A stretch of DNA of 64,000 nt from Nitrospira sp. GTDB taxonomy: Bacteria; Nitrospirota; Nitrospiria; Nitrospirales; Nitrospiraceae. Below the pieces are notes generated by a model. The model did not search any database, had not been told where the DNA came from, and worked only from the letters and a program-made list of their open reading frames with translations. Shown piece after piece: positions 21,050 through 43,731 of this stretch (the first letter of the stretch is position 1; every line of letters starts with the position of its first letter). The DNA is taken from assembly GCA_037045225.1 (NCBI GenBank), contig JBAOHZ010000008.1:282-64281 (forward strand), given 5' to 3'. Both the position numbers and the translations under genes were made by a program.

Positions 21050-21318
21050 ACTAGCTCCCCCCCGCCTCACCGGGCCAGGTGACCCTCTATATCCGGAACC
21101 AGCTGTTCGTCCACCGCTTCACCGGCACGCATACCCACGAATCCCTTCTGACGGGCAAACCACTCGGGAGCTGACGCACCCTTCCATTTTTGCAGAGCGG
21201 AGAAAAGACGATTTAAAAGCCCCCCTCCTCCACAGCCATTGCAGGCTCCTCCTTTGAGCTGCCCCTGCGAACGATAATGAAGCCTAGAAACAATGTAATA
21301 CAATACCCGGCGAAAGCC

Positions 21319-21327
21319 ATATCCTGC
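21319..21327 (+). other. candidate oriT nic core ATATCCTG|C
   Basis: A plus-strand 9-mer identical to the RP4 / T-DNA-border nick core (nick after ...ATCCTG). It lies 270 bp upstream of mobC, with a small GGCgaaaGCC hairpin immediately 5' of it. Confidence 0.4.
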
Positions 21328-21636
21328 AACACCATAATTAATACCAACAACCGCCTCTGAAAAATTACGACTCAGCGAGACCAACCTGGAACCCTATGCC
21401 TTTGCGATGTGAGAATTGACTGGTTGTTACAACGTCGGAGGCTTGGCCCACACCCCCGCGGGGCCAGGTGGTGGTTCCTCGACTCTTCCCCCCCGCGCGC
21501 GCGCAGGAGACAAATGAACACAGGGTGTCGCAGCCCCCTAATGGTCGATGTGCGAAAGAGTTTCGCAAAGCCGCTCTCCGAAGCAAAGCTCTATGACGGC
21601 ACAAAATAATCATGTCGGGGAGCAAGCGCGTTCAGG

Positions 21637-21896
21637 CTGGCATGCGGCGCACACACACCGAACCCATGCAGGTGATTCAGGGCCAGTAGGAAAAGAAAAG
21701 GTGCACTTCGAGGCACTCCCATCCTCGCGTATACCTGAGGTGATGACGCGTTTCATTCGTTGGTTCAACGACACCGCGCCAGGAGAGAAAAAACGAATCA
21801 GAAAAGCCGTGGTGCGGTCGGGTCGTCACGCATGTCTACTTTGAATCGATACACCCATTCGAAGATGGCAATGGCCGTATCGGCCGGGCGTGTTGA
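21637..21896 (+). pseudogene. Fic-domain gene remnant (frameshifted and truncated inside the Fic motif)
   Basis: RRTHTEPMQVIQG / KVHFEALPSSRIPEVMTRFIRWFNDTAPGEKKRIRKAVVRS / VTHVYFESIHPFEDGNGRIGRAC*, in three frames. It parallels residues of the intact Fic at 35374-36528 (WRTHEEPMQVVSG...KVHFEAPPSARVPQNMTQFIEWFNDTGPG...AHLYFETIHPFEDGNGRIGR). Confidence 0.55.
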
Positions 21897-21934
21897 TTGA
21901 GTTTGATCGCACTTTGTGCCCAAGCTTGTCCCTT

Positions 21935-23221: not shown

Positions 23222-23337
23222 GTAGTCCTCCGTTACGTATTAGTCTTTTCTTTCGTAATTCTTTACGTAAGTCCACATTTCCACGTCTTAGTCAGAGCCA
23301 CGATCATCAATCAAATAGCGGACTTATGGGACAACAC

Positions 23338-23487
23338 AGTTTCTTTTCACTCTCACGGTTCTTTTCACTCTCACAAGATTTCTTTTGAGTCTCACCAAAT
23401 AACGGCCCATTGCTATCCTTTGCCTCTCACTAATTTCTTTTCACTCTCACGAAATCGTCCTTTGGCTCTCACTTGCCCTGTGGATAA
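23338..23487. repeat. oriV: six iterons plus a DnaA box
   Basis: Direct repeats (T)TTCTTTTCACTCTCAC at 23338-23356, 23357-23374 and 23432-23450. Variants are TTTCTTTTGAGTCTCAC (23377-23395), TCCTTTGCCTCTCAC (23414-23430) and TCCTTTGGCTCTCAC (23456-23472). TGTGGATAA (23479-23487) is the reverse complement of the TTATCCACA consensus. Confidence 0.7.
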
Positions 23488-23672
23488 CCTAGCCCCTTGC
23501 GGGCCCCGTGGCCTTGTTGGGGAAAATGTTGCTGATCCGGGAGGTATCGTCAGGACCCGCACGGGCTAATCGCAGAGCAGGAAGAAAAGTTGAATCTCCG
23601 AACCGTAAACGTTCGAAACTTGTGAGAGTCAAAAGAAGAGCGGAACCGGTCAGTCCAGAGGCGAAAGCAACG

Positions 23673-24650
23673 TCAGGAGGAAGGATTTTGTTTTTGGGCT
23701 TGGGCCACATAATCTCGAGCTTGATCTAATGCCTCCATGACGATAGGAACATCATTGAGCCGATTCGGATGAAAGCGAATGACGAGAAAAAAGGCTCCGT
23801 TGTCTCCCTTGGGAGTAAAACGCACCGACTGGGCACCTTGATTGATGCGCGGCTGACGGAGGATCTCTTCACGGATTCGCTTGGCGGTCCATTGTTGCTC
23901 AACGGCGAGGCGAGCCACCCGTTCCAGTCGAATGGGATTGGATCGCAGGGGAAGGAGCTCCTGTACATGGGTGAATGAGAGCGGAGATCCAGGCCCTAAG
24001 GTCAGATCGAGAATCGCCTCTGGAAGTTCGAGAACGTGCAAGGCCCGAGATATACGTGTTTTGTCGCACCCTAGGGCTTGGGCAAGTTCATTCTGGCGGT
24101 AGTGGTGCTGATCGATGAGTTTTCGGTAGCCCTTCGCTTCCTCAAAGCCCGAGAGATTCTTCCGCAATAGGTTATCGAGCAGGGCCTCTGCGGCTGCGGA
24201 GTCTGTGGACGCCTGTCGCACAAGTGCGGGAATCGTCTGGAGTCCCAACGCTTGCGAGGCACGCCAGCGTCGTTCACCAGCGACGATTTCATAGCGATTC
24301 TTTCCTAGCGGTCTGACATGAATCGGGGTGCGTATCCCATGCACTCGGATGTTCTCCACGAGCTCTGGGTCCGGCTCCACGTTCATGCGGGGCTGGTCCG
24401 GACTGGGTTCCAGCTGATGGAGAGGTAGATTGTAGATTCGCTCAGCGGCCTGAGCACCCTCTCGGTCTTCGTCGAGGGCATGACGGTTCTCCAAGGAAGG
24501 CGTGGCGCTTGGCGTAGCGCGGATGTCTTCCCCTAATGTCTCCTTGAGTACTTCCTCGACCGCGGACTGATTCGACATGCCCAACCCGGCCAGGGCCTTT
24601 TTACCTTCAGCCAGCAGACGCTCCCGTTCTTTGGACATCTTCTGAGACAT
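23673..24650 (-). CDS. parB: ParB-family partition protein
   Basis: ParB N-terminal box IVAGERRWRAS, followed by an HTH (NELAQALGCDKTRISRAL). Its start overlaps the parA stop. Confidence 0.85.
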   Translation of the reverse strand: MSQKMSKERERLLAEGKKALAGLGMSNQSAVEEVLKETLGEDIRATPSATPSLENRHALDEDREGAQAAERIYNLPLHQLEPSPDQPRMNVEPDPELVENIRVHGIRTPIHVRPLGKNRYEIVAGERRWRASQALGLQTIPALVRQASTDSAAAEALLDNLLRKNLSGFEEAKGYRKLIDQHHYRQNELAQALGCDKTRISRALHVLELPEAILDLTLGPGSPLSFTHVQELLPLRSNPIRLERVARLAVEQQWTAKRIREEILRQPRINQGAQSVRFTPKGDNGAFFLVIRFHPNRLNDVPIVMEALDQARDYVAQAQKQNPSS

Positions 24651-25519
24651 CAGTTGACCCCGACTTCTGATTCGCTAACAGGGGATTCCGAGCGCGGCGA
24701 GTCGTCACCCTCACCCTGTTTCGAGTGGTCAAGTGCGAGGCGCGCGATCACCTCCGCGGCCAAGCTGGCATAGTCTTCAGCTCCGGAAGCGCGCAACTCC
24801 TGCTGGAAGATGGTCTTGTTGACCATGATCGCTTTTCCGAATTCCGTATTTTCACGAATCGCAGTCTTAAAGACTTGCTCGCCAAACGTGTCTCGCATGG
24901 TTTTTACGATTGTCTTCGCCACGTTTGTACGCATGTCGCATCGAGTCAATAGATATCCCAGCAACTCGGTCTTGCGATCCGTCTTCACCACATTGACCTG
25001 TCCAATTTTTGTTTGCAGAGAGCGCAGCCCGTCCAGCGCGTACTTATCGCCGGCGCCGACCGGCACGATTACATGATGAGCCGCGTACAAGGCATTCGAC
25101 ATGAACGTCCCAAGGTTGGGGGGGCAATCGAGTAAGCAGATGAAGTAGCGACTCAAGAGCGCAGATTGCTTGAATGCCGCGTCGAGTCCCAGAAGGGCCC
25201 GAGGCGTATTTTGGATGTAACCCTCCTGCTCAAACAGGTCGATGTGTGAGGGGATGAGGTCAAGATTTTTGGTGGTTGTTTCAACAATGGCATCATCGAG
25301 CACGGCCGTGCCCCCCAAGACCTGTGCTAGCGTAATGGCACCCTTATATTCCCGCCGTTCGTGTGGAAACAGAGTTGCAGTCAGGTTGGCCTGGGGGTCG
25401 ACATCAACCACAAGGACCCGTTTCTTACCCATTCGAGCGATACCAGCGGCAAGATTCGCAGCCGTAGTAGTCTTGCCAACACCACCTTTGTGGGACGAAA
25501 TAGCGACTATTCTGGTCAC
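24650..25519 (-). CDS. parA: ParA partition ATPase
   Basis: Deviant Walker A SSHKGGVGKTTTAANLA, followed by VVDVDPQANLT. Confidence 0.9.
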   Translation of the reverse strand: MTRIVAISSHKGGVGKTTTAANLAAGIARMGKKRVLVVDVDPQANLTATLFPHERREYKGAITLAQVLGGTAVLDDAIVETTTKNLDLIPSHIDLFEQEGYIQNTPRALLGLDAAFKQSALLSRYFICLLDCPPNLGTFMSNALYAAHHVIVPVGAGDKYALDGLRSLQTKIGQVNVVKTDRKTELLGYLLTRCDMRTNVAKTIVKTMRDTFGEQVFKTAIRENTEFGKAIMVNKTIFQQELRASGAEDYASLAAEVIARLALDHSKQGEGDDSPRSESPVSESEVGVN

Positions 25520-26843: not shown

Positions 26844-28211
26844 ATGTTCAGTAGATATGGAGTTTGTAGTGTGATACAGATGACACCGCACGCCAGCGCG
26901 GGTTTTGAACGGTCGGAGGAAAACAGGTCTATGGGGTGTGAGCAGGACGACGAACCGCCGGCTGAGACGGCTGAGACGGCAGGGTCGGCAGACGGCGACC
27001 CCCGCGTGATCGACCAGGCGTTACAACCCTGGCTGCCGGCGACCCGACCCAAGGTCCAGCTCGAGACCCTCTCCATCCTCACATGGCCGACTGGGGTGGC
27101 GGTCGACAGCCCCGCGTTTGATCATTTTCTGGCCGCGGTGGTCTCGCCCTTCTGTGCCACCTATCCCGCGCGGAGTACCCAGCTCCTCTACCGCCGCAGT
27201 CTGACCTATTTTTTTCGCTGGTGGGGCCAGGCCCGCGCGAGGGAAGGCCAGCCGGACAGCTTCACCGAACAGTTGCTGCACGGCTACCGCGCCAGCCTCA
27301 CCCTCCAACAGCGGGAGGGGACACACAAACGCTTGGAGGCGCGGACGATCAACGTCTACCTCGCCAGCTTACGCGCTTTCTGTCAGTGGCTGAAACGGAC
27401 CGCACAGATCCCCTACAACCCGATGAGCGCAGTAAAGGGCATGAAAGTCGCCAAACGGTTCGTCCGGGACAGCCTGACCGAGCCCGAAGTCGAACGCCTG
27501 ATCGCCACCTTCGATGTGACCGTCACCGACCCGGCCGCCCAAGAGCAGGTGTTGCGCGATTATGCCATGACGCTACTTTGGGTCAGTACCGGCACCCGCA
27601 GCATCGAACTCGCGCGGGCGCAGCGCCGGCATCTCAATCACCGGGATGGCCACCCCATCCTCTATCTCCACCGCAAAGGCAGCAGTAGTGCCGAACAGCC
27701 GGTGGTGCTGGCACCCTGGGTGCTCGATGCGCTCACCGCCTATTTCCGGATGCATGACCGCCGGCATCATGGTGGGGGCCCCACGGAACCGTTCCGTGGT
27801 CCGCTTCCCGAGCACCCCTTGTTTGCCTGGCTGCGGGGCCCGGGCAAGTATCATTCGAAGAGGCAGAATGTCGCCCAGACTCGAGGGTGCCGGCCCTTAG
27901 GAGTCGGTTCGATTCAGGCCATGATGCGCCACCATCTCGAGGAGGCGGGCCTCAGTCGGCTGATCAACCCGGATACCCAAAGCGTCCGTCCGATCTCCCC
28001 GCATTCGCTTCGACATACGGCCGCCACGCTCGCACTGAAACATGGTGCGACGATCAGACAGGTCCAGTCCATGCTGGGTCATGCCGACATCCAGACCACC
28101 ATGATCTATCTGCACGAGAAGGACCGCATCCTGAACGCGGCCGAACACACCATCCCCGACTTTTCCGTCCCACTTCCCACCGTCTGTGACAGACGGGAGC
28201 ACCACGAGTAG
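26844..28211 (+). CDS. tyrosine recombinase / integrase (XerC/D superfamily)
   Basis: C-terminal catalytic signature: ...[11 protein letters not shown]..., [38 protein letters not shown]. The start is uncertain (26844 or 26880). Confidence 0.85.
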
Positions 28212-29602: not shown

Positions 29603-30039
29603 TTATGAATAGAAGGCTCCTGAGAGCCTTTTTCGTGTGGCAGTATCGCCGAGGAACCCCTGGTCCTTGAGATTGGCGAACCAAGTCTCGGCGAAGGAGG
29701 CGAGCTCCTGCTTCAACCGTACATTGACGCGGGTCTTCTTACCATCTTCGTCATACCGGTACACCTCCTGTAGAACACCCATATAATCGTTCTGGAAAGA
29801 TAGCGGCATTGCCATGGAGGCAAGAGGGGATAACGAGAGTTCAAAGACCAGTTCGGGATCGCGCATCAGGTTGCCATTCTGTTCGCGATCGTGGCAGAGA
29901 GACACCAGGCAGTGGCCGTCTGCGGATTTCCCAATGTGTTCGACGAATAGGGCAGAGAGCCGCTCACCGTGAGGCGGACGGCGGTCTCGCTGCCGAGCAG
30001 CTGAGTCAGGACTGTCGCGAAATGGTGATAGGTGTTCAT
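29603..30039 (-). pseudogene. DUF6908-like conjugative-element protein, copy A (frameshifted)
   Basis: ATG at 30039 with AAGGAG upstream gives MNTYHHFATVLTQLLGSETAVRLTVSG. Homology to copy B then continues in another frame (LSALFVEHIGKSADGHCLVSLCHDREQNGNLMRDPELVFEL...). The span is 437 nt, not a multiple of 3, and the shift lies near 29955-29968. Confidence 0.6.
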
Positions 30040-30107
30040 CGTAGTGACTCCTTGAGGGAAGCCCCCGGCGCTGAGCGCCAGAGGCTCCCGATGGGAAGCA
30101 ACGCTGT

Positions 30108-30341
30108 TTACCGTGCTTGCCCACGGACCCAGTCCTTGGCCATTTCTGCCACGGATGCCAGGGCATCCAGATCGTTGAGACCGTAGGAAGCCGAGGTTTT
30201 CCAGTTGCCTTCCACGTCCTTATAGGGACGGGAAAAGGTGACGGAGTAGAAAATGCCTCTTTCTCCGGTATTCTCCCAGACAGCGGCGTTGACGGCGCCG
30301 CACCTGAAAGCAGTCGCTGGTTTTGAGTGTGATGTAGCCAT
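30108..30341 (-). CDS. small conserved protein, copy A (77 aa, unknown function)
   Basis: MATSHSKPATAFRCGAVNAAVWENTGERGIFYSVTFSRPYKDVEGNWKTSASYGLNDLDAL..., paralogous to 32139-32375. A GGGGGA RBS lies 6 nt upstream. Confidence 0.6.
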   Translation of the reverse strand: MATSHSKPATAFRCGAVNAAVWENTGERGIFYSVTFSRPYKDVEGNWKTSASYGLNDLDALASVAEMAKDWVRGQAR

Positions 30342-30659
30342 GTCGTTCCCCCTTTGAAAAATGTTGGTTGGCTCTCTCACAACGCTAGAGAGCCAAGCGG
30401 CATTTGAAAGAGGGGCGAGCCTGGAAGCCGGAGGGCGTACCGGCGCGGGATCCGCAGCGAACAGGACAGCGGCTCGTTGCTGGCGTGGGCGGTGCCTCGC
30501 GCCGGGGAAAAGCCCATAGGCGAGAGGGCGTCATGGTTACACAAAAAGCAAGGAAGTGGTAGGGGAGGAAGTCTTGCCGCCCTGTCAAAGGGATACTGGG
30601 CAGTTATGCCTGTCGGCGCTTTCCTTGTGAGGACCGGGGAAGGGCAAGTGCCTGGAATC
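30342..30659 (-). promoter_or_regulatory. structured non-coding leader, copy A
   Basis: Hairpin TTGGCTCTCT-9nt-AGAGAGCCAA at 30368-30396, 26 nt from the ATG. It is followed by GC-rich blocks shared with copy B (GCCGGAGGGCGTACC, GGCTGGCGTGGGCGGTGC, GAAAAGCCCA, ATGCCTG.CGGCG.TTTCCTT, GGAATC). Confidence 0.5.
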
Positions 30660-30680
30660 TCGTGGGGAAACGGATAGCCA

Positions 30681-30709
30681 TTGACATGTACGGCACTGTG
30701 CCGTACGCT
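30681..30709 (+). promoter_or_regulatory. promoter/operator of the DUF1778-GNAT toxin-antitoxin operon
   Basis: TTGACA (30681-30686), a 17-nt spacer and TACGCT. A perfect 9-nt-arm palindrome GTACGGCAC-T-GTGCCGTAC (30688-30706) spans the spacer. Confidence 0.5.
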
Positions 30710-30735
30710 TGAATCAGAAGCACAAGGAGGACATC

Positions 30736-31038
30736 ATGCCGCCGACCGATCTAGAAACAGAAGAAAAGGCTCCCCGCGTGGAGCGACTTGAAGCGCGTGT
30801 CAGTAAGGCGCAGAAGAATCTGTTTTTGCGAGCTGCGACAGTGCAGGGCCGATCGCTGACGGATTTTTTGATTGCGAGCGTGCAGGAAGCTGCGGAGAGA
30901 GCCTTGCGCGCGCATGATGTGCTGACGCTGAGCGAACGTGACCGGAGAATCTTTGTAGAGACTCTTGTGAAGCCCGCCGCGCCCAGCAAGACGCTTCGTC
31001 AGGCTGCGACACGCTACAAGGAGAGGACGAGGATCTAG
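30736..31038 (+). CDS. DUF1778 (TacA-like) antitoxin
   Basis: RLEARVSKAQKNLFLRAATVQGRSLTDFLIASVQEAAERAL is the RHH DUF1778 pattern. An AAGGAGGA RBS is present. Confidence 0.8.
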   Translation: MPPTDLETEEKAPRVERLEARVSKAQKNLFLRAATVQGRSLTDFLIASVQEAAERALRAHDVLTLSERDRRIFVETLVKPAAPSKTLRQAATRYKERTRI

Positions 31039-31563
31039 TTGCTTGGGAAAAAGAGGGATACCCCCTACCGCGTTGAGGCGCTCGGCAAGCAGCATGACAA
31101 GGAAGGGTTTACCTGCGGCAGCGGGCCGCTGGATCACTACCTTGAGGTACAGGCGGGGCAGGACACGCGAAAGCGCGTGGCCGCGACTTTTGTACTGTGC
31201 GAGGGGGAAAGTAACAGGGTGATTGGGTTCTACACCCTTTCGGCTATCAGCGTGGACATTGGCGCGTGGCCGGAGAGTGTGGCGAAGAAACTCCCTCGGT
31301 ATCCGGTCATCCCGGCCACACTCCTCGGGCGCTTGGCCATCGACAAGCAGCGTCAGGGGCGAGGGGCCGGAGAACATCTTCTCATGGACGCCCTGCATCG
31401 CAGCTGGCGCACTGCACGGGAGGTCGCGTCGGTGGCAGTGGTAGTCGATGCGAAAGACCGTCGGGCCGCTGAGTTTTACACACAGTATGATTTCACGCCG
31501 CTGGTAGACCCGCCGATCAGGCTCTTTTTGCCCATGAGCGTGATCGAAAAATTGTTTTCTTGA
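31039..31563 (+). CDS. GNAT-family acetyltransferase toxin (TacT-like)
   Basis: ...FTCGSGPLDHYL......RVAATFVL......VIGFYTLSA...LGRLAIDKQRQGRGAGEHLL..., directly downstream of the DUF1778 gene. Confidence 0.8.
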   Translation: MLGKKRDTPYRVEALGKQHDKEGFTCGSGPLDHYLEVQAGQDTRKRVAATFVLCEGESNRVIGFYTLSAISVDIGAWPESVAKKLPRYPVIPATLLGRLAIDKQRQGRGAGEHLLMDALHRSWRTAREVASVAVVVDAKDRRAAEFYTQYDFTPLVDPPIRLFLPMSVIEKLFS

Positions 31564-31705
31564 AGAAGGCGAACGCGTAAACCAGCCGTTACTTGTTGTA
31601 TGTAGTGCCTGTTCAAACCTCCGCTAGGGGTGTAGGGGATGTCGCACACACAACCAGTCGAGGACAGCGTGAACGCGCGCCGATGAGAAGGGGAGGAAAG
31701 ACAGC

Positions 31706-32128
31706 TCAGGTGAGCCGCTCCCGAATAACGGTATCGCTGAGGAATCCCTGATCCTTGAGATTTTTAAACCATGTCCGGGCGAAGGATTTCAGATCCTGTT
31801 TCAAGCGCGCATTAACGTGGGTTTTCTTGCCTGAATCGTCATAGCGGTAAACCTCCTGCATCGTTCCCATGTAATCGTTCCGGAAGGAAAGAGGCTCTGC
31901 GGCAAGAGCATCCGGCCATTGGCGCAATTCAAAGACCATATCCGGGTCGCGCATGAGGTCGCCGTTCTGCGCACCATAGTGGCAGATAGAAACGAGGCGA
32001 TGGCCGTCTGTGGATTTGCCGATATCCTCAACGGACAAGGGCATGTAGCCGTTCACGGTAAGACGGATAGCGGTATCGTTGCCGAGCAACTGCGTGAGGA
32101 CTGTTGCGAAGTGTTGATATGTTTTCAT
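31706..32128 (-). CDS. DUF6908-like conjugative-element protein, copy B (intact)
   Basis: 140 aa: MKTYQHFATVLTQLLG...STDGHRLVSICHYGAQNGDLMRDPDMVFEL...FRNDYMGTMQEVYRYDDSGKKTHVNARLKQDL. The family name is from memory and should be verified. Confidence 0.6.
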   Translation of the reverse strand: MKTYQHFATVLTQLLGNDTAIRLTVNGYMPLSVEDIGKSTDGHRLVSICHYGAQNGDLMRDPDMVFELRQWPDALAAEPLSFRNDYMGTMQEVYRYDDSGKKTHVNARLKQDLKSFARTWFKNLKDQGFLSDTVIRERLT

Positions 32129-32138
32129 GATGTTCTCC

Positions 32139-32375
32139 TTATTTGTTTTTCATGATGAAAAGCCTGGCTTGAAAAGCGACATCAGCCAAAGCCTCAAGGT
32201 CGCCGGCATGGAAAGACGTGGTGTGTCTCCAGCTGTCCTCAACGCCTTTGTACGAGCGTGAGAATGTGACGCTGTAAAACATTGCCTCCCGGCTGGCGTT
32301 CTCCCAGACGGCGGCCTGAATGGTTCCCTTGCGGAAAGTCTGAGCGGGTTTCTTGGTGTCTGTTTCTGTAGCCAT
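32139..32375 (-). CDS. small conserved protein, copy B (78 aa)
   Basis: MATETDTKKPAQTFRKGTIQAAVWENASREAMFYSVTFSRSYKGVEDSWRHTTSFHAGDLEAL..., with a GGAGG RBS. Confidence 0.6.
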   Translation of the reverse strand: MATETDTKKPAQTFRKGTIQAAVWENASREAMFYSVTFSRSYKGVEDSWRHTTSFHAGDLEALADVAFQARLFIMKNK

Positions 32376-32682
32376 GTGGTTCCTCCGTTGAAAAAATGTG
32401 ATTGGCTCTCTCGCAAAGCGCCGGAGAGCCAAGGCAACATTTTTAAGGAGGAATAGCCCGGAGCCGGAGGGCGTACCCGAAGCGCGGGAGCGGCGAACAT
32501 GACAGCATTCTTAGGCTGGCGTGGGCGGTGCAGCGCGTAGGGAGAAAAGCCCACAGGCCGGAGGGCGGCGGTGGCTATAGAAAGCGGGGAAGCGGAAATC
32601 TGGCTCGCATGTCAGGGGGGACACGGGGCAGGGATGCCTGACGGCGTTTTCCTTAACGGGAAAGAGGCGGCCGCATGGAATC
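32376..32682 (-). promoter_or_regulatory. structured non-coding leader, copy B
   Basis: Hairpin TTGGCTCTC-12nt-GGAGAGCCAA at 32402-32432, 26 nt from the ATG, with the same conserved blocks as copy A. Confidence 0.5.
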
Positions 32683-32718
32683 AGTTGATGAGTGACGCGC
32701 TACACGCTACAGTGGAAG

Positions 32719-32996
32719 ATGATAGTGAGTTTCAGGCACCGGGGGCTTAAAAGGTTTTTCGAGGAGGAAGATGCCCGGAAGCTGGCACCGGATATGGTGA
32801 TCGGATTAAGGCAATTCTGGCGCGGTTGTACCAAGCGGAAGTGATTAAGGATATGAACATCCATTCCTACAGGCGTCATCCTTTGAAAGGAAGCCGGAAA
32901 GGGGAATGGGGCGTAACGGTGAGGGCGAACTAGCGCATTACCTTCCGGTTCGAGGATGGGTATGCGTTAGATGTGAATTTAGAGGATTACCATTGA
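32719..32996 (+). pseudogene. higB: higB (RelE-fold killer toxin) with a frameshift and an in-frame TAG
   Basis: MIVSFRHRGLKRFFEEEDARKLAPDMV, then a frame change, then RIKAILARLYQAEVIKDMNIHSYRRHPLKGSRKGEWGVTVRAN*RITFRFEDGYALDVNLEDYH. The TAG sits where HigB proteins have the W of NWRI. Confidence 0.7.
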
Positions 32997-33010
32997 AGAA
33001 GGAGAGTGCT

Positions 33011-33319
33011 ATGAAGGCTTTGAAAATGAAAAATCCGCCGCATCCGGGATTTTCGGTGCGCGTGGACTGTCTGGAGCCGCATGGGTTGAGCGTGACCGAA
33101 GGGGCGAAGGTTTTTGGTGTGTCGCGGTCGGCATTGAGCCATCTGGTGAACGAGGGTGCAGACCTGTCCTGGGATATGGCTATTCGTTTGTCGAAAGCGT
33201 TTGGCAGCACGCCGGAGGGATGGATGCGGCTGCAGTTTCAGTTTGATGCGGCGCAGGTGGGAGAACGGGCGAAGAAAATAAAAGTGGAGACTTTTGCTGC
33301 GGATGCGGCTTGTGTTTGA
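33011..33319 (+). CDS. higA: HigA-type XRE-family antitoxin (intact)
   Basis: NPPHPGFSVRVDCLEPHGLSVTEGAKVFGVSRSALSHLVNEGADLSWDMAIRLSKAFGSTPEGWMRLQ. Confidence 0.8.
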   Translation: MKALKMKNPPHPGFSVRVDCLEPHGLSVTEGAKVFGVSRSALSHLVNEGADLSWDMAIRLSKAFGSTPEGWMRLQFQFDAAQVGERAKKIKVETFAADAACV

Positions 33320-33357
33320 GGAGCGGTCATCAATAGCGCCATGTCGCTCCTTGATAA

Positions 33358-33670
33358 ATGTACCGGCCTGGCCTAGCATTTCAAAAATGCGGCGTCATGC
33401 TGCTGGATCTTATACCCGCCACTATGGAGCGGCATGATCTCTTCGATAATCGGGACCAACATCGCCAGACTGATGAAAGCTGTCGATCTCATCAATGCCG
33501 GGCATGGGGCACGGACGGTTCATTTCGGAGACATCGGAGGGGCAGGCCGGAATGGTCAATGCACCTGGCCTTCCGTAGCCCCCCGCTATACGACATGGTG
33601 GGAAGAATTGCCGGTTGTGAAGCTTTTCAAGAAAAAAATGAAGCGGTATCGATTAGCATCCAATTGCTAG
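33358..33670 (+). pseudogene. umuC: umuC (Y-family polymerase) 3'-end remnant, frameshifted
   Basis: FQKCGVMLLDLIPATMERHDLFDNRD in one frame and ARLMKAVDLINAGHGARTVHFG...APRYTTWWEELPVVK in another. Only the C-terminal tail of the protein is present. Confidence 0.5.
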
Positions 33671-33857
33671 GGGTCAAAGTAAGATGATGCTCTATGAGGT
33701 AGTCATTACAGCCTGTGAATTCGCAGTGTCCGTCGGCAACAACAAAAAGGTGAAGACGAATTTTGGGGTCGATCGCTCTCGACGTGACATCATCCACTGG
33801 GGAAGCCGATTTCGAAGAGGTGTTAGCGGTGGTAGCTCCCAAATCGTCCTCCGATTC

Positions 33858-34427
33858 CTAAAGAAGGTTCGCAAAAGCGCGTAGCTTCGCGACAAATTCG
33901 TTTAGTTGCTGTTTTTCCAAACATTCAAGATATTCCTCGACTGACTTGGCAGGATTTTTAAGCCTGTTGCGATGTGTTCGGCAGGCCGCAGAGACAATCC
34001 CCGGGGCAAGATCCACGACGTGCGTCAGGAATTCGTCGGGATGTTGAGCCGCGATGTCGTATTTGCCAAGTTCCTTGGCGGGAAAATCTTTTAAGTTATA
34101 GGTAACGATTACATCCCCTCTTCCTTTGATGGCAGCGGCAAGAACATGATTATCTTTAGAATCGGGAAGATGAAGTGATGGTATCAATTCTTCAAAATTT
34201 TCAACCACGCAATCCCTTACGCTCATGTCCATAAACTCACGGGTTCTTTTAAGGTCTGCGGCCGTCAGGTCGGGCCGATTTTTTAGCAGAGAAGCTGTCC
34301 ATTCATCGTGGATGCGCTGAGACCACTTCGCGCGGAAAAGATCCGTCACCGCAAGCTCCATGAGGAGATCGCGGAGCGGCGCCGGATAGAGAACGCAGGC
34401 ATCGTACAGTGCGGTGAACGTTGCCAA
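33858..34427 (-). CDS. PIN-domain toxin
   Basis: LYDACVLYPAPLRDLLMELA...DSKDNHVLAAAIKGRGDVIVTYNLKDF. It is translationally adjacent to the HTH antitoxin gene. Confidence 0.8.
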   Translation of the reverse strand: MATFTALYDACVLYPAPLRDLLMELAVTDLFRAKWSQRIHDEWTASLLKNRPDLTAADLKRTREFMDMSVRDCVVENFEELIPSLHLPDSKDNHVLAAAIKGRGDVIVTYNLKDFPAKELGKYDIAAQHPDEFLTHVVDLAPGIVSAACRTHRNRLKNPAKSVEEYLECLEKQQLNEFVAKLRAFANLL

Positions 34428-34429
34428 AA

Positions 34430-34897
34430 TTAATAGCCCATATCGAGGTGCTGTGCCTGTTTAACCAGTTCATCGAGAGCTTTTTGCCGGTCTTTGTCGA
34501 TATCCTTCTTGTAGCGCATTAGATCTTCAAACATGACACGGCGATGCGTACCGACTTTCTGATGGGGTATTTTCCCCTCTTCCAGAAGGCGGACCAGAAA
34601 GGGGCGGGAAACATTGAGGACATCTGCTGCCTGCTGTGTCGTCAGCTGGGCATGGACGGGGATTAATGTGACCGCGTTCCCGGCTGCCATCTCGGTAAGC
34701 AGATCCAGCAACAACCGAACGGCATAGGGCGGGAGGGCAAGCTTGTGGGTGGCTTTCCTCTCCTCCCCTATTTGAAAGTTTAGATTTTCAAGATGATCCA
34801 GATAGGGCGCGAGGGTACGGCTGGCTTCGCGCGCGATCGCGGCCTCCTGCGCGGTCGGTACAATTGGATCTCTTGTTCTACTGGTCATGGTGGCCAT
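34430..34897 (-). CDS. excisionase-family HTH antitoxin partner of the PIN toxin
   Basis: LTTQQAADVLNVSRPFLVRLLEEGKIPHQKVGTHRRVMFEDL. Start set at MATMTSRT. Confidence 0.75.
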   Translation of the reverse strand: MATMTSRTRDPIVPTAQEAAIAREASRTLAPYLDHLENLNFQIGEERKATHKLALPPYAVRLLLDLLTEMAAGNAVTLIPVHAQLTTQQAADVLNVSRPFLVRLLEEGKIPHQKVGTHRRVMFEDLMRYKKDIDKDRQKALDELVKQAQHLDMGY

Positions 34898-35373
34898 GGT
34901 GGTTCTCCTGTGTTCTAAGACCAGTCTAGCCCATAAACGAAATAAACGCAACAAACGAAATATTCAAAATATCCTATTTTTGCTTTTGATAAAAGCCAAA
35001 ATAGAGACCATTATAAAACAATGCTTTACATCGTTATTGGCCAAGGCGATGCTCGGTGCGGTCCGGGTAGATTTCTCTGTTCCTGCTTTCAGGATTTACG
35101 CTTGCCTGTGTTCGGGTCTTTTGCTCATTGGATTTTCACCTTCCCGTTGAGCCGGTTGGCTCACCTCCTTCTATTCTCCATCGTTAGCACCGGCGGGCCA
35201 CGTGTCGCCGTGAGTTGATCAGGCCGGGCTGCAAAGGAAGACGGTCGTTATGCTTGGGCAGCGTTGTCCCGCGTGCGCTTGTGGCGGCGCTGGCATGACG
35301 GGGGAGCGGGTTCCATGTTGGACAGTTCTGGTGGCGTAACGGGTTTCCGGGCCCTGTCTTTTAAAAAGCGATC

Positions 35374-36528
35374 TTAAAGGTTGATCTGATAGTTTCTACC
35401 TCGCCCAGCTCCCAAAGAAATTAAAGCCCCTATCTCGACCAACTCCTGCAAATCCCTGGTCGCTGTTGGTTTCGAGGTGCCTGTGATGACGATATATTTT
35501 TTGGGGCTCATCCCACCCTCAAAACCTTTGAGACCTTTCTCCAGCATCCGGCTGATGACGCGGCGCTGTCGATCATTGAGCTGATTCTGAAATCGGGCAA
35601 AAAACTTTGTTTTCTTCAGAGTGAAATCGATCTGCTGCGCGGCTTCCGTCTGTGCATCCAGAATCATCGAGACGAAGTAGTGAATCCATAGGGTAATGTC
35701 GAGTGATGTCTGTGCTGCTTTCAACGCGTCATAGTAAGCATTTTTACCGGTCTCAATAGTCTTTGACAAACTGAGAAGAATGGGGCGTCCCACGCCCTGG
35801 GATAAAGCCTTTTCGGAAAGGGCCCGTCCGATTCTTCCATTTCCGTCCTCAAAGGGGTGAATGGTTTCAAAATATAGATGGGCGATAGCAGACCGCACCG
35901 GAGACTTTCTGATTTCCATGGGGCCCCCCGGCCCAGTGTCATTGAACCACTCGATAAACTGCGTCATGTTCTGAGGCACTCGCGCGGAAGGAGGCGCTTC
36001 AAAATGCACCTTCCAGTTTCCGATCGCTCCCGACACGACTTGCATGGGTTCCTCATGGGTACGCCAGGCGCCGATCTTGTGCTTCGTATTTCCTTTCATG
36101 ATCATGGTGTGCCATGCAAACAGCTTTTCTTCCGTCAGCGTTTCTGAAACACTCTTCCGTACATCGATCATCAGCTCCGCCGCACCCTGCGCTTTTGTGT
36201 CCGTAATGCGTTCCGGGTGTTGATTCAGCCCCAAATTATTCTTAATAGACGACATCACATCACTGCGGCTGAGATATTCACCTTCGATTTCTGAGGTCTT
36301 GACGGCTTCGGCCACCATCATGTCGATAATGGTTTCTGTCTGAGTGTCTTCGGGCAAGGCCTTGAGAATGCCGCTGACATGGCCTTCCTTTTCCGCGAAG
36401 GCAAGCAGTAGATCCTCAATGTTCGTGAGGTGGTATTTAAATCGGGGCCAATTGGGGTGTTGCCAGCTGTAACGCATGAGCCGATTATACCATTTAATCG
36501 GCTCATTTTTGACTATTATTTGAGCCAT
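35374..36528 (-). CDS. fic: Fic-family protein (AMPylase-type)
   Basis: Canonical HPFEDGNGRIGR motif, a Fic_N-like N-terminus and a C-terminal wHTH. Confidence 0.9.
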   Translation of the reverse strand: MAQIIVKNEPIKWYNRLMRYSWQHPNWPRFKYHLTNIEDLLLAFAEKEGHVSGILKALPEDTQTETIIDMMVAEAVKTSEIEGEYLSRSDVMSSIKNNLGLNQHPERITDTKAQGAAELMIDVRKSVSETLTEEKLFAWHTMIMKGNTKHKIGAWRTHEEPMQVVSGAIGNWKVHFEAPPSARVPQNMTQFIEWFNDTGPGGPMEIRKSPVRSAIAHLYFETIHPFEDGNGRIGRALSEKALSQGVGRPILLSLSKTIETGKNAYYDALKAAQTSLDITLWIHYFVSMILDAQTEAAQQIDFTLKKTKFFARFQNQLNDRQRRVISRMLEKGLKGFEGGMSPKKYIVITGTSKPTATRDLQELVEIGALISLGAGRGRNYQINL

Positions 36529-36724
36529 TTATAGAATGTAATAGCCTCTCCAGATGTTAAACCGTTGAATTGTGATCGGGTTGTCGTGGCGGTCATCGGT
36601 GATGTAACCATCCGGCGCTGGTTCATCGTGCGGCCCGCAGAACATGAAACGGCGCAACACCGAACACAATAAATAACAACAGGCCTCTGGCAGCGGAATG
36701 ATAAAGAGGGATGAGTGCGGCGTG

Positions 36725-37231
36725 TTAGGCCGGCCACCCCTGATCCGCAAAACTGAAGGTGCGATCGTCGCCTAGAATAATGTGGTCAAGAATGGTGATG
36801 CCGATGAGATCGCCGGCCTGACGGAGCCGGGCAGTGAGCACACGATCTTCTGAACTGGGTTGCGGATCGCCGGACGGATGATTGTGGGCGCAGATGATAG
36901 CGGCGCTATTGAGCAGGATCGCGGGTTTGAAGACTTCGCGCGGATGGACGATGCTGAGCGTGAGAGAACCAATGGACACGATGTTGACGCCGATGACTGC
37001 ATGTTTGGCGTCCAGACAGGCAACAAGGAACTGTTCACGATCGAGACCCTGATAGAGGGGCCGGAGTATGGTGGCCGCTCCCGCAGAATCGCGGATGACG
37101 ACAGGCGGATCGGGGCGGGCACTTCCCGGCACCAGCTGGAGAGTGTACCGCGGGATAAGCAGCGGGTTCGTCACGTCCGGGCGAGGGACGATCGAGAATG
37201 TGGGAGTCTTCGGAGTGTATCGCTTTGTCAT
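36725..37231 (-). CDS. radC: RadC-like JAB/MPN domain protein
   Basis: HNHPSGDPQPSSED metalloprotease motif, with IGITILDHII at the C-terminus. Confidence 0.9.
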   Translation of the reverse strand: MTKRYTPKTPTFSIVPRPDVTNPLLIPRYTLQLVPGSARPDPPVVIRDSAGAATILRPLYQGLDREQFLVACLDAKHAVIGVNIVSIGSLTLSIVHPREVFKPAILLNSAAIICAHNHPSGDPQPSSEDRVLTARLRQAGDLIGITILDHIILGDDRTFSFADQGWPA

Positions 37232-37480
37232 GCTGGGACCTCTCTTGTGTTGGACTCACTGGCTCTCTCGATGAAACCGGAGAGCCGGTGTAGGACAACG
37301 GGAGGTCGAGGGCCATGCAGGCCGATGAAGCTCAGAGTGGACGGGTCACGAGCAGCGGCAGTGACAGTTTTCTGGCATTGCCGGTGCGCACGGCAGCTGG
37401 AGCGCGGCCAGCCATTGGCCCGGCATGGCAGAGCGAATTTTTCGAGAAGCTCCACCTCTTGAGGTATAGCCAAGCTACCT
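37232..37480 (-). promoter_or_regulatory. structured non-coding leader, copy C (diverged)
   Basis: Hairpin GGCTCTCT-11nt-GGAGAGCC at 37259-37288, 27 nt from the radC ATG. On the minus strand the core GCACCGGCAATGCCAGAAAACTGTCACTGCCGCTGC resembles GCACCGCCCACGCCAGC...GCTGTC...GCTGC in copies A and B. Confidence 0.4.
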
Positions 37481-37722: not shown

Positions 37723-38061
37723 GTGATGAGCACAAGCACGGCTGACGGTAGGGCACAGGACGGAAATCAGGCGCAGGGTGGCCGAGTAGTCATGGTACAG
37801 GCGGCATCGTTCCTATTGGGCCTGGCGGTGATATTGGAGGCCCATCCTGCATGGGCACAGATTACGAAGGTCAATTCGGTGATGACTAACGTGCAAACCG
37901 TACTCGTCAGTGTGGCTGTCACGCTGTTCACCGTGGCCATAATGTGGGCCGGGTTCAAAATGGCCTTTCAACAGGCGCAATGGTCCGAGATTAGCAACCT
38001 GGTGATTGGTGGAATCTTGGTCGGCGGGGCGGCCGGGATTGCGTCCTGGCTCCTCAACTAA
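37723..38061 (+). CDS. virB2: VirB2/TrbC-type pilin
   Basis: Long signal sequence, then two hydrophobic helices (VLVSVAVTLFTVAIMWAGFKM...VIGGILVGGAAGIASWLL). It is the first gene of the T4SS cluster. Confidence 0.8.
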   Translation: MMSTSTADGRAQDGNQAQGGRVVMVQAASFLLGLAVILEAHPAWAQITKVNSVMTNVQTVLVSVAVTLFTVAIMWAGFKMAFQQAQWSEISNLVIGGILVGGAAGIASWLLN

Positions 38062-38396
38062 TGATGAGCGACGGCTTTCGCGACCCCATTTTCAAAGGAT
38101 GTACCCGGCCCGCGATGTTGGGTGGTGTACCGACGCTTCCGCTGATTCTCACGGGCGGGGCTACCCTCCTTCTATCTGTGTGGTCGTTTTACCTCGTCAG
38201 CGGCTATGTGTCGTTGCTTCTGATACTCATGGCTATTGCGGCCATAGTGACGATGCGCGAGATAACGAAGCAAGATGATCAACGTCTGCGGCAGGTGATG
38301 ATGCGAGCGCGGATGCGGGTGCGTCACATGGCGAATCGCAGCACGTGGGGTGCGATTTCGTATGGGCCGCTAAGATTTAAAAGGCGGCGGGGCTAA
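38061..38396 (+). CDS. virB3: VirB3
   Basis: DPIFKGCTRPAMLGGVP followed by a TM hairpin. An ATGA overlap links it to virB2. Confidence 0.8.
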   Translation: MMSDGFRDPIFKGCTRPAMLGGVPTLPLILTGGATLLLSVWSFYLVSGYVSLLLILMAIAAIVTMREITKQDDQRLRQVMMRARMRVRHMANRSTWGAISYGPLRFKRRRG

Positions 38397-38463
38397 GGAG
38401 CATCACGGAATGGGCTGCTGTCTGTTCCAGGCAGAGTGAGCCCAATCCCGCAGGACACACACC

Positions 38464-40905
38464 ATGAGAACTCGCTTAGAAGTCAGTAAAGCGGCCTCGG
38501 CTCAGGTTCCGGCCAGTGACTATATTCCGTTGGGCACCCCCATCACGGCCCACGTGGTCAAGCTGTCGAACACGGGCGATTACCTTGCCATCTGGCGATT
38601 GGAAGGGATCACGTTTGAAACCGCGGATCGGGCCGAGATTTTGCTGCGGAAAGAAGGGTTGCACAACTTTATTCGCGCGTTAGGAGGTGGGAACTACGCG
38701 GTGTGGTCCCATAAGATTCGTCGGGTGGTCACCGAACGGTTATCGGGCAAGTCCCCAAATGCGTTTTGTGAAGAGTTGAACGATCGCTACTATCGGTCCT
38801 TCGACAGTCATCGGCAGATGGCCACGGAATTGTATCTGTCGGTAGTGTATCGCCCCTTCCCCTCCAGAGTCCGGAGTTTTTTCACACGATTAAAGGGGCG
38901 GAGTCTGCAACAGATTCGCGATCAAGAGACCGAACATCTCGCCATTCTGGAAGATACGGCCTGCCAGCTGGAAGCCAGCTTGAGGCGCTATGAGCCTCAG
39001 CGACTCGGTACCTATACGAAACAGGACATCGTCTATTCGGAGATGCTCGCCTTTCTAGGCTATCTCATCAACGGTGTCTGGGAAGAGATCCCCTTTCGTC
39101 GCGCACCGTTGACGTCCTACCTCCCAACCTCGCGGCTCCACTTTGGCGATAAAACCGGGATGGTGGAGATCTGGCATCCGAAGGAACGGAAATTCGCGGG
39201 GTTTCTGGACATGCAGGAGTATCCTCAGTTTTCCGAGCCGGGAATGAATAACGGCATCCTCTATGGAGAGGACGAGTATATCGAGACGCAGAGCTATTCG
39301 ATCTACAACAAGCGGGATGCTCTCAAGGCGCTCGACAAACAGAAAGGCCATTTGATCGCGTCAGAAGATGCCGCGACCAGAGAAATTGAGCAAATGGATC
39401 AGGCGGCGGAAGACATCCAAAGCGGCCTCATTGATCTGGGGGAGTATCATTATACCATCGCCGTGTTCGGAGCCACGATGAACGCGGTGGCGAAGTCCCT
39501 GGCGGAACTCCGGGCCATATTTCAAGATGGATCAGGTTTTAAAATGTCCCCGGTCGATGTGATCCCGGAATGCGCGTGGTACGCCCAGATTCCCGGAAAC
39601 TGGAGCCTCAGGCCGCGAGAGGCGACGATTACCAGCCGGAATTTTGTCTGTTTGAGCCCCTTTCATAATTTCGCCCGTGGGAAACGAGCCGGCAATCCCT
39701 GGGGAGAAGCATTGGCGCTATTCAAAACGCCGAGCGGCCAACCGTATTATTTTAACTTTCATGCGTCCCCCGAAGACAAAGATTCACGGGATGAGAAATA
39801 TCCTGGCAACACCTTCATTTGTGGCACCACAGGGGTGGGAAAAACCGCCTTAGAAATGGCCTTGCTCTCGTTTGCGACGAAATACCGCGGGCTCCGCTGT
39901 GTGTTTTTTGATAAGGATCGGGGCGCCGAGATCGGGATTCGAGCGATGGGCGGCAAATACTTTCCCCTCAAGCGAGGCGCGCCAACAGGGTTTAATCCCT
40001 TCCAGCTCGAGCCGACAGCCCACAACCTGCAATTCTGCGAAAAACTGATCCGCCAGTTCATCAAGACTGCGGGACAGGACCTGCCCTTGCTATCGGCGAA
40101 GGAGCAGCACGAGATCAGCCATGCCGTGCGAATCGTGATGAGCGAGGCGGTATCACGCGAGGTGCGCTGTCTCTCATTGATCATGCAAAACCTTCCGGCC
40201 ACCGGTGAGAATAGTGTGAAGGCGCGGCTGAAGAAATGGACGAGGGGGCACCCGCTCGGATGGGCCTTCGACAATCCCTCCGATACACAGGATTTTAGCG
40301 GCGCAAGCTTGTTTGGGTACGACTATACAGAATTTCTCGATGATCCCGAGATTCGGACGCCGATCGTGGCGTACCTACTCCATCTGACTGAGAGCCTGAT
40401 TACGGGCGACCCCTTTGTCTACTTTATGGAGGAGTTCTGGAAACCCCTGCAAGACTCGATGTTCTCGGAGTTTGCCCTCAATAAACAAAAGACGATTCGA
40501 AAGCAATCCGGTCTGGGTGTGTTTGTGACTCAATCCCCATCCGACGTCCTCGGGCATCCGATTGGTAAAACCATGGTGGAGCAAAGTGTCACACAGATTT
40601 TCTTGCCGAATCCCCGAGCGGATCACGCCGACTATGTTCACGGATTCAAAGTCACCGAATCCGAATATCGGATTATCAAGAATCTGGGAGAGGCCAGCCG
40701 CATGTTTTTGGTGAAGCAAGGGCATGGGTCCGCAATTGTCACCTTTGACTTGGGTAGTATGCCAGACATTCTGAATGTCATTTCCGGGACCACAGAGAAT
40801 GTGGCATTGCTCGATCGGATCCGTGAAGACGTCGGCGATGCGCCGGAGGCCTGGATGCCAGTGCTGCACGAACGAATCGCGGCGCGGCGCGGCCTAATCA
40901 AATGA
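38464..40905 (+). CDS. virB4: VirB4 ATPase
   Basis: 813 aa with Walker A GTTGVGKTALEM and the CagE/TrbE/VirB4 layout. Confidence 0.95.
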   Translation: MRTRLEVSKAASAQVPASDYIPLGTPITAHVVKLSNTGDYLAIWRLEGITFETADRAEILLRKEGLHNFIRALGGGNYAVWSHKIRRVVTERLSGKSPNAFCEELNDRYYRSFDSHRQMATELYLSVVYRPFPSRVRSFFTRLKGRSLQQIRDQETEHLAILEDTACQLEASLRRYEPQRLGTYTKQDIVYSEMLAFLGYLINGVWEEIPFRRAPLTSYLPTSRLHFGDKTGMVEIWHPKERKFAGFLDMQEYPQFSEPGMNNGILYGEDEYIETQSYSIYNKRDALKALDKQKGHLIASEDAATREIEQMDQAAEDIQSGLIDLGEYHYTIAVFGATMNAVAKSLAELRAIFQDGSGFKMSPVDVIPECAWYAQIPGNWSLRPREATITSRNFVCLSPFHNFARGKRAGNPWGEALALFKTPSGQPYYFNFHASPEDKDSRDEKYPGNTFICGTTGVGKTALEMALLSFATKYRGLRCVFFDKDRGAEIGIRAMGGKYFPLKRGAPTGFNPFQLEPTAHNLQFCEKLIRQFIKTAGQDLPLLSAKEQHEISHAVRIVMSEAVSREVRCLSLIMQNLPATGENSVKARLKKWTRGHPLGWAFDNPSDTQDFSGASLFGYDYTEFLDDPEIRTPIVAYLLHLTESLITGDPFVYFMEEFWKPLQDSMFSEFALNKQKTIRKQSGLGVFVTQSPSDVLGHPIGKTMVEQSVTQIFLPNPRADHADYVHGFKVTESEYRIIKNLGEASRMFLVKQGHGSAIVTFDLGSMPDILNVISGTTENVALLDRIREDVGDAPEAWMPVLHERIAARRGLIK

Positions 40906-41173
40906 CGAACAGCAGGCGAACACGCAGGGCAGGGTTATCGGCTCCAGATGCATCGAGCGAGCAATCCGGGCACAGCGGGGAGACACACCAAAGCCACGAG
41001 CCAGAATGGAACGTGGTGGGCCTGGCAACCTCAGCATACCTATGGACAGCCGGGAACGACACCGCACTGGAATGACGAAGTATGCGATGGAAGTAGCTTG
41101 GATAGCGGAACAGTCTTCGCCCGTGGGAGCAACTCTAGCAGCTGAGTGGTGAGACGACAGAGCCGAGGGTGCA

Positions 41174-42214: not shown

Positions 42215-42230
42215 CCGAAGGAGGTCCCGT

Positions 42231-43721: not shown

Positions 43722-43731
43722 AAAGGTCATC

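Follow-up and report, generated by a model that had tools for sequence, protein, structure and literature searches.

A repeated, strand-specific structured element at gene starts in a conjugative element of Nitrospira

The Frpo/ssi single-strand promoters of F and ColIb-P9, reportedly described by Masai and Arai in 1997, are among the closest comparisons for the element reported here. Promoters of this kind account for plasmid anti-defence and establishment genes being expressed while the incoming DNA is not yet duplex. To our knowledge, single-strand promoters are known experimentally from F/IncI-type plasmids only, and elsewhere only by similarity to those. The present study concerns a structured, non-coding element found in 64,000 nucleotides of Nitrospira sp. 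DNA (GenBank assembly GCA_037045225.1, contig JBAOHZ010000008.1, positions 282 to 64,281 of the forward strand), a stretch that contains a conjugative element and is hereafter called the window. The structured element is ~220-300 bases long and occurs in three copies (A, B and C), each just before a gene. Its plus strand folds into a three-way junction made of helices P0, P1 and P2 and supported by covariation, and this is the strand that serves as template for the downstream genes rather than the one matching their mRNA.

Repeated or structured elements with related features have been described in several mobile systems. In the F plasmid, Frpo1 and Frpo2 are 92% identical and lie 5 kb apart with flmAB between them (PMC9849209), and the genes of the leading region use the transferred strand (T-strand) as template (PMC9849209, PMC11541004). 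In pLS20, whose transferred strand is the non-template strand, the repeated, GC-rich EGeRS1 has a conserved structured part of ~325 nt directly upstream of the RBS (ribosome-binding site) in several establishment operons; it lacks a constitutive promoter and, in its native orientation only, keeps upstream promoters from driving expression (PMC8708921). The sso elements (ssoA, ssoT, ssoU and sso1 of ICEBs1) are orientation-specific, multi-hairpin stretches of 150-300 nt that are active solely in the single-stranded state and recruit RNA polymerase or primase to prime the complementary strand (PMC4595007). Finally, the radC RNA motif and STAXI were described from Proteobacteria/Enterobacteriales, and STAXI itself is suspected to be single-stranded DNA (ssDNA) (PMC2864571).

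The Nitrospira element resembles Frpo/ssi in its size (~300 nt), its non-coding nature, its presence in two to three copies per (here putative) leading region and its location immediately before leading-type genes. Between the repeats sits, in both cases, a toxin-antitoxin pair, TacAT here and flmAB in F, where its location between Frpo1 and Frpo2 has been suggested to guard against recombinational deletion of the repeats. The initial annotation, made by reading the sequence of the window, had pointed to an Frpo/ssi-type element, and this proposal survives in part: computed folds place the structure on the plus strand, that is, on the template of the downstream genes, which is the polarity required. 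However, blastn with copy A (word size 11) found no match among 72,556 PLSDB plasmids, and a three-way junction plus a 3' domain stands here in place of one long hairpin. Unlike Frpo/ssi, the Nitrospira element has no reconstituted -35/-10 pair, its fold encloses the Shine-Dalgarno (SD) sequence and the start codon, and its P2 arm is ~70% GC. A further difference from F and ColIb-P9 is that all organism-labelled loci come from Nitrospira/Nitrospirales.

EGeRS1 is a near parallel in function, with a likeness at the level of features only: a repeated, structured region, GC-rich relative to the mobile element, before the RBS of different genes, orientation dependence, and no sigma-A/sigma-70 promoter predicted. 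In contrast with pLS20, where the transferred strand is non-template, the strand that folds here is the template, and pairing of the start codon is unreported for EGeRS1 (PMC8708921). The PLSDB search gave no plasmid match that would speak for homology to EGeRS1, the presence of pLS20 among its entries being unconfirmed. An orientation-specific single-strand fold, here a predicted one, is shared with sso, but sso elements are untied to gene starts and usually single-copy; no conserved sso motif was recognised, and the loop of copy A contains a TAGCGT (minus strand) that homologues do not keep. Concealment of the SD and start codon by long-range pairing, together with antisense overlap with the translation-initiation region, recalls hok/sok and FinP control. 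However, the polarity of the Nitrospira element favours the strand opposite to the mRNA, and its size and its conserved P2 and 3' domain have no counterpart in those systems.

The radC motif and STAXI share with the Nitrospira element a neighbourhood of radC, anti-restriction and integrase-type mobile-element genes; copy C and an element of another locus (L090:2215-2384) indeed precede radC. The suggestion that the element might be the radC RNA motif was nevertheless not borne out, as the covariance models (CMs) of radC (RF01754) and STAXI (RF01728, tandem pseudoknot repeats) gave no match on either strand of 340-400-nt stretches at E<=10. Rfam 15 gave no relevant match in the whole window at the gathering threshold, and nothing relevant at E<=10 on 10 kb and on the elements alone. 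The only real match was a fluoride riboswitch (crcB motif) at 63112-63176 on the minus strand (54.4 bits, E=2.5e-12), which lies outside the conjugative element.

Copies A and B can be aligned over ~330 nt with 79% mean column identity (MAFFT), or 72% by a stricter global alignment, while the small proteins encoded behind them are only 47-49% identical to each other. Conservation of the region is far above chance and above that of the adjacent coding sequence (CDS). Both copies contain all the sequence blocks listed by the initial annotation, in unchanged order, and weaker likeness runs beyond the structured part up to a GGAATC at 30654-30659 (copy A) and 32677-32682 (copy B). The TTGGCTCTC..GAGAGCCAA hairpin occurs exactly twice in 64 kb, with 0 occurrences expected, and its distance from CAT, the reverse complement of the ATG of the minus-strand small gene, is exactly 26 nt in both copies, as had been noticed. 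Other details required correction. A block of 18 nt described as identical in both copies matches at 17 of 18 positions, as copy A reads TGCTGGCG... and differs in the first base; a CAGC.AAC/GTT.GCTG inner stem with a GACAGC loop can be formed in copy A only, and family-wide GACAGC lies within a stem (GCAGCGAACATGACAGC / GCTGGCGTGGGCGGTGC); and the element does not end at the hairpin but extends into the gene, with the first 8 nt of the small-gene CDS belonging to helix P0. The idea that these regions are coding remnants was rejected: substitutions lack a 3-base period (power at 1/3 equals 0.3x the mean), and indels, mostly of 1-2 nt, break the frame. The open reading frames (ORFs) listed at 30385-30588 and 32150-32554, both on the minus strand, are artefacts of the list.

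Homologues were collected in three ways. A protein-anchored scan of species genomes yielded 4 loci in Nitrospira/Nitrospirales metagenome-assembled genomes with the element upstream of homologues of the small protein; a DNA pattern made from the most conserved block matched 80 metagenome loci, ~25 of them real; and an nhmmer profile plus further contigs completed a set of 28 non-redundant copies. A pattern scan of IMG/VR produced three matches, all by chance. Two or three copies per locus are common (L001, L004, L017, L073), as in the window. Where the proteins of two loci share 30-50% identity, identity amounts to 74% in the element and 58% in the CDS, figures which indicate that the element evolves more slowly than the gene behind it. 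One homologue, L003, has cleanly lost the apical part of P2 and retained the base of the arm.

A curated structure was scored on an alignment of 27 sequences. Paired cells amounted to 90.8%, compared with 40-48% when the partners were slid, and double changes were found in 20 pairs against 9.5 in shuffles, none of 500 of which attained the observed value. Hence, the element has a conserved secondary structure, as the initial annotation had proposed, and covariation among homologues supports it. Outside P0, P1a, P2d and P5 covariation is modest because all homologues come from one lineage. In helix P0, the complement of the ATG and first codons pairs with a copy located ~200 nt away (GTAGCCAT with ATGGCTAC). 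P1 starts with the complement of the SD paired with an SD copy, continues with an A5/T5 segment with tandem T.G and ends in the TTGGCTCTC stem. P2 is an arm of ~115 nt comprising five helices as well as purine-purine mismatches that are invariant; in copy A the helices are GCCT/GGGC, GCC/GGC, GGGC/GCCC, CCGGCGCG/CGCGCCGG and the apical GCAGCGAACAGGACAGC/GCTGGCGTGGGCGGTGC. Copies A and B have, in addition to the junction, a 3' domain in which P5 shows compensatory changes in 4/4 pairs. The tetraloop of P6, another hairpin of this domain (30599-30610, 32627-32638 and homologues), is always GNNA (GTTA, GTGA, GGTA, GGGA or GTAA); it is most often GTTA, hence outside the GNRA class.

The folded strand is the template because energies, wobble counts, z-scores and the mismatches of P0 all favour the plus strand. 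The RNAalifold consensus reaches -55.9 kcal/mol on the plus strand (structure conservation index, SCI, 0.41) and -18.3 on the minus strand (SCI 0.17), and DNA parameters give -17.8 and -5.3, respectively. The curated structure is more stable on the plus strand in 26 of the 27 sequences with DNA parameters and in all 27 with RNA parameters. Cells with G.U number ~174 versus ~55 with A.C, and the ratio is ~2:1 among variants of Watson-Crick consensus pairs. For single copies, DNA folds gave z-scores of -4.76 (plus) and -2.75 (minus) for copy A, whose minimum free energy with DNA parameters is -68.9 kcal/mol; -3.83 and -2.21 for copy B; and -6.56 and -2.53 for copy C. P0 contains one, two and two G.T wobbles in A, B and C, where the opposite strand would have A.C mismatches; the wobble of copy A thus pairs on the plus strand only. 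Among 13 minus-strand gene starts in the window, a dense fold (-0.21 to -0.25 kcal/mol per nt) is found only upstream of the three that bear the element. P0-type closure is found at the three element sites and at the relaxase start, in the latter case probably by chance.

The strongest covariation is that of P0, whose sequence follows the opening codons of the six different genes found behind it. The main family has GTAGCC/GGCTAC before genes that start MAT. GCAGCC/GGCTGC goes with MAA, the start of a DUF4326 gene (Pfam 6e-30; L017 and L004), GTAGTC/GACTAC with MTT where DUF6908 follows directly (L016), GTATCC/GGATAC with MDT (L001), GGTTTTCA/TGAAAACC with MKT (two copies in L090, and L004), and TCGCTTTGTCAT/ATGGCAGAGCGA with MTKR, the start of radC behind copy C. 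At least four unrelated genes are preceded by the same element: DUF4326 genes stand directly behind it at L017:3077-3361 (+) and from L004:~945 onward (+), and in L024 and L016 the small gene is missing and the element lies before DUF6908. Because the same element precedes different genes, it behaves as a portable cassette.

Copy C, upstream of radC, is the third locus anticipated by the initial annotation; it exists, but it is strongly diverged. Its P0 (TCGCTTTGTCAT, 37220-37231, with ATGGCAGAGCGA, 37425-37436) has 12-15 bp with two T.G wobbles, and its P1, from GACCTC (37237) to GAGGTC (37302-37307), surrounds a hairpin formed by CTGGCTCTCTC (37259) and GGAGAGCCGG (37279). The P2 apex (37352-37387) is tied to the family by compensatory changes. 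In a CM of the P2 arm (R1), whose short calibration makes its E-values rough, copy C is marginal (19.6 bits, E=0.11); its membership rests mainly on architecture and on shared motifs, namely the GCTCTCTC hairpin and GACAG..CTGGC at fixed spacing. Comparable diverged copies are found in L090, before radC and before two small ORFs.

Known signals of transcription were sought around the element. A consensus scan of 30000-32800 predicted no sigma-70-like promoter (0 sites) on either strand. Boxes resembling sigma-54 (TGGCAC-N5-TTGC) and extracytoplasmic-function-type sites (GGAAC) in P1 and its loop were discarded, as only a loose RAAC(C/G) is shared and there is no conserved -10 partner. No intrinsic-terminator-like site was found on the plus strand at or after the element; the three sites predicted all lie on the minus strand, within flanking genes.

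We tentatively favour, as plausible but somewhat short of probable, a reading in which the element serves as a structured, strand-specific signal during the single-stranded phase of the conjugative element, with functions like those of Frpo/ssi and sso but outside those families. The single-stranded state could be the transferred strand just after its entry into the recipient, or the displaced strand in rolling-circle replication. P0 and P1 would rebuild a pseudo-duplex across the translation-initiation region, from ~+8/+12 to ~-70, and P2 would be a side arm, conserved in sequence, that might serve as a recognition site for a polymerase, a primase or another protein. The outcome would be early, transient expression of the downstream leading genes, priming of the complementary strand, or both, and the signal would vanish once the DNA becomes duplex. 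The genes served would be those of the small protein, DUF6908, DUF4326 and RadC. Conservation, fold, covariation, strand polarity and modular use before different genes are direct observations. Promoter activity on ssDNA of the Frpo/ssi kind is an analogy rather than a finding because homology and a -35/-10 pair are lacking and the fold is different. A more specific version, quite unlikely in our judgement, is that of a single-strand expression and priming device independent of promoter boxes, in which the junction on the incoming T-strand mimics an open complex. P1 would then be the upstream duplex, the template linker of 5-6 nt from SD to ATG the bubble, P0 the downstream duplex and P2 the recognition arm, so that host RNA polymerase or primase could begin at the start codon or close to it with no need for -35/-10. 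After conversion to duplex, the same genes might be kept silent by the mirror fold that read-through mRNAs would adopt, and the portable cassette would need only its P0 retuned to the first codons of each gene.

Several observations weigh against a single-strand signal. Consensus G.T wobbles, some of them in tandem (P1b), are better tolerated in RNA than in DNA, and the curated fold reaches only ~-28 kcal/mol with DNA parameters compared with -85 with RNA parameters. Inspection of the 3' arms of P0, P1 and P2 revealed no TTGACA-N17-TATAAT-like -35/-10 pair; hence the promoter mimicry that defines Frpo is absent. EGeRS1, on a plasmid that transfers the non-template strand, shares the placement, the structure, the GC-richness and the lack of a promoter, so position and structure alone are no proof of ssDNA function, and sequestration of the SD and AUG by P0 and P1 is what a translational lock on the mRNA would look like. 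Fold-back of the start region is also seen, without clear strand asymmetry, in the distant loci L092 (Opitutus) and L093. In addition, gene order is the sole basis for the assignment of the transferred strand, and a nick-like motif found in the putative origin of transfer (oriT; see below) is statistically ordinary, with 15 matches in the window against 8 expected, and is not flanked by an inverted repeat.

The same polarity would be expected if the plus strand were transcribed into a large, structured non-coding RNA (ncRNA) acting as a cis-antisense. Its 5' part, complementary to the SD and start codon, would repress or time the translation of the leading gene, while P2 and the 3' domain would supply a scaffold or modules for protein binding. 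The greater stability under RNA parameters fits this explanation, and so do the consensus G.U pairs and conserved purine-purine mismatches, typical of structured RNAs, and a multi-domain build closer to large ncRNAs than to a promoter hairpin. We nevertheless regard it as rather unlikely: no promoter is recognisable in the at least three different coding regions where such an RNA must start, no plus-strand terminator follows the element, and the antisense segments are locked within the element's own helices P0 and P1. Neither an Rfam family nor GNRA or UNCG tetraloops are found, and the sole conserved tetraloop is mostly GTTA; GNNA loops are stable in DNA too. Alternatively, the leader of the minus-strand mRNA might fold back and hide the SD (P1) and the AUG (P0), acting as a translational lock or read-through insulator like EGeRS1 that would keep the genes silent in established hosts. 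P0 and P1a are nearly pure Watson-Crick, could form on either strand and covary with the SD (GGGGGA or GGAGGA) and the first codons. EGeRS1 provides a parallel in its repetition, its placement before the RBS and its orientation-bound block of read-through (PMC8708921). The element of L090 stands behind a HigBA-like pair of the same direction, which makes read-through plausible, and start-region fold-backs upstream of homologues elsewhere (Opitutus terrae, L092; a metagenome contig, L093) point the same way. Yet the minus-strand consensus structure is poor (SCI 0.17, -18.3 kcal/mol) and does not recover P2, and the curated fold is weaker on the minus strand in 27/27 sequences. Moreover, reading the fold on that strand turns the conserved mismatches into pyrimidine-pyrimidine ones and the consensus wobbles into A.C, puts 1-2 A.C mismatches into P0 of each of the three window copies, and gives no reason for the strong conservation of sequence in P2 and the 3' domain. 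A lock on the mRNA thus appears improbable as the explanation, although it could coexist with an ssDNA signal, with P0 and P1 acting on both strands. An ordinary duplicated promoter/operator or a recombination scar, in which similarity reflects recent duplication or gene conversion and the repeats are duplex sites for a regulator, would account for the duplication of modules within loci, and the palindromic TTGGCTCTC..GAGAGCCAA could serve as operator. However, the element surpasses the flanking CDS in conservation across many loci, so more than recent duplication is involved; compensatory changes are long-range (P0, P2d, P2e, P5), duplex binding sites cannot yield strand asymmetry, the apical P2 hairpin has been cleanly deleted in L003 with the arm base kept, and a sigma-70 promoter was not found. 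We consider this explanation very improbable.

In the distant loci L092, L093 and L095, no sequence match to the Nitrospira element was found. Upstream of the small-protein homologues at L092:9700-10014 (Opitutus terrae, CP001032) and L093:9745-10014 (a metagenome contig), regions are G-rich on the template strand, with pairing between the start region's complement and a segment ~200 nt off.

The coordinates of the element and of other features of the window are collected in Table 1.

Table 1. Features of the window (CM R1, covariance model of the P2 arm; its E-values are rough; T4SS, type IV secretion system)
Feature	Position	Strand	Remarks
Copy A, whole structured element	30334-30636	+	nhmmer E=1e-85
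Copy A, P0 5' half GTAGCCAT	30334-30341	+	reverse complement of ATG and codons 2-3 of the small gene
Copy A, P0 3' half ATGGTTAC	30533-30540	+	pairs with 30334-30341, one G.T wobble
Copy A, P1 extended hairpin	30347-30415	+	TCCCCC (SD complement)/GAGGGG, A5/T5 segment, TTGGCTCTC hairpin
Copy A, TTGGCTCTC..GAGAGCCAA hairpin	30368-30396		
Copy A, P2 long arm	30419-30529	+	CM R1 119.2 bits, E=2.4e-25 (rough)
Copy A, 3' domain	30544-30623	+	outer helix AAAAGC/GCTTTC around hairpins P4, P5 and P6 (GGCA-GTTA-TGCC)
Copy B, whole structured element	32368-32664	+	nhmmer E=6.5e-67; CM R1 95 bits
Copy B, P0	32368-32375 with 32571-32578	+	two G.T wobbles
Copy B, P1	32381-32452	+	
Copy B, TTGGCTCTC..GAGAGCCAA hairpin	32402-32432		
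Copy B, P2	32456-32566	+	
Copy B, 3' domain	32580-32651	+	
Copy C, diverged	37220-37436	+	DNA fold -61.5 kcal/mol
Small gene after copy A (77 aa)	30108-30341	-	
Paralogue after copy B (78 aa)	32139-32375	-	
DUF6908 gene, module A, split by a frameshift	29603-30039	-	PF21849 9e-29 on 29603-29980
DUF6908 gene, module B, intact	31706-32128	-	Pfam 2.4e-39
Modules A and B	29603-32375	-	
TacA-TacT toxin-antitoxin pair between copies A and B	30736-31563	+	Pfam
RadC-like JAB gene behind copy C	36725-37231	-	PF04002 2.8e-42
PIN/HTH, Fic, RadC	33858-37231	-	
MobA/VirD2-like relaxase	19530-20522	-	Pfam; served only for inferring the transferred strand
NikA/MobC-like accessory gene	20507-21070	-	Pfam; served only for inferring the transferred strand
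Putative oriT	~21071-21934		upstream of the nikA-relaxase operon
RPA replication initiator, ParB, ParA	21935-25519	-	
Tyrosine recombinase	26844-28211	+	
Toxin-antitoxin pairs	several sites	+	
T4SS, virB2 to virD4	37723-49266	+	

The element is repeated upstream of leading-region-type genes, as the initial annotation had stated. The minus strand carries the relaxase operon, RPA, ParB, ParA, orf207, both modules, PIN, Fic and RadC, genes that sit between the putative oriT and the T4SS; this synteny is kept in L073, L001 and L090. The relaxase gene is typically the last to enter the recipient (PMC11541004). As the putative oriT lies upstream of nikA, the plus strand is likely to be the transferred strand, judging from the order of relaxase, putative oriT and T4SS. 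It would follow that all genes in 21.9-37.2 kb other than toxin-antitoxin genes are transcribed toward oriT with the T-strand as template, an F-like layout. A candidate nick motif, TATCCTG|C at 21320-21327 on the plus strand (TATCCTGC), fits the MOBP/VirD2-type core YATCCTG|Y, and YATCCTGY occurs a single time upstream of nikA on that strand, the one predicted to be transferred. The plus strand has a GC skew of +0.12 to +0.19 over 30001-34000 and ~0 elsewhere, raised because of the G-rich elements and the minus-strand genes.

The 77-aa small protein has no Pfam or NCBIfam match, and its family comprises 98 clusters (P0001-P0098). An AlphaFold2 model of the 78-aa paralogue shows four strands and a C-terminal helix (predicted local distance difference test score 90), a modelled topology that resembles PC4/Whirly ssDNA binders. 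However, Foldseek against PDB gave nothing significant with this model (a PC4 homologue ranked 23, with E=2), and a sequence profile search of PDB found nothing. The proposal of a PC4-like ssDNA binder was therefore dropped in spite of the fitting topology, and the fold gives nothing firm on the function of the small protein. In module A, the frame of the DUF6908 gene that encodes the N-terminal 30 aa differs from that of the remainder, which matches Pfam; the gene is either a pseudogene or affected by an assembly error. TacA-TacT lies between repeats in L001, L017 and L073 as well. A HigB-like toxin frame at 32692-32990 (+) seems broken into several frames next to an intact HigA (~33012-33319), which suggests a decayed toxin with its antitoxin retained.

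Altogether, covariation and wobble polarity provide comparative evidence for selection on a template-strand fold before leading-type genes. The architecture is new, with sigma-70 boxes missing and the start codon physically a part of it, and the example comes from Nitrospirota, nitrifiers without a genetic system. If the element is active as ssDNA, the concept of single-strand signals would extend past promoter mimicry to a portable "early expression" cassette; if it acts as an RNA instead, it would represent a new class of large ncRNA tied to conjugation. Either way, the small protein, DUF6908, DUF4326 and RadC become candidates for early establishment or anti-defence functions.

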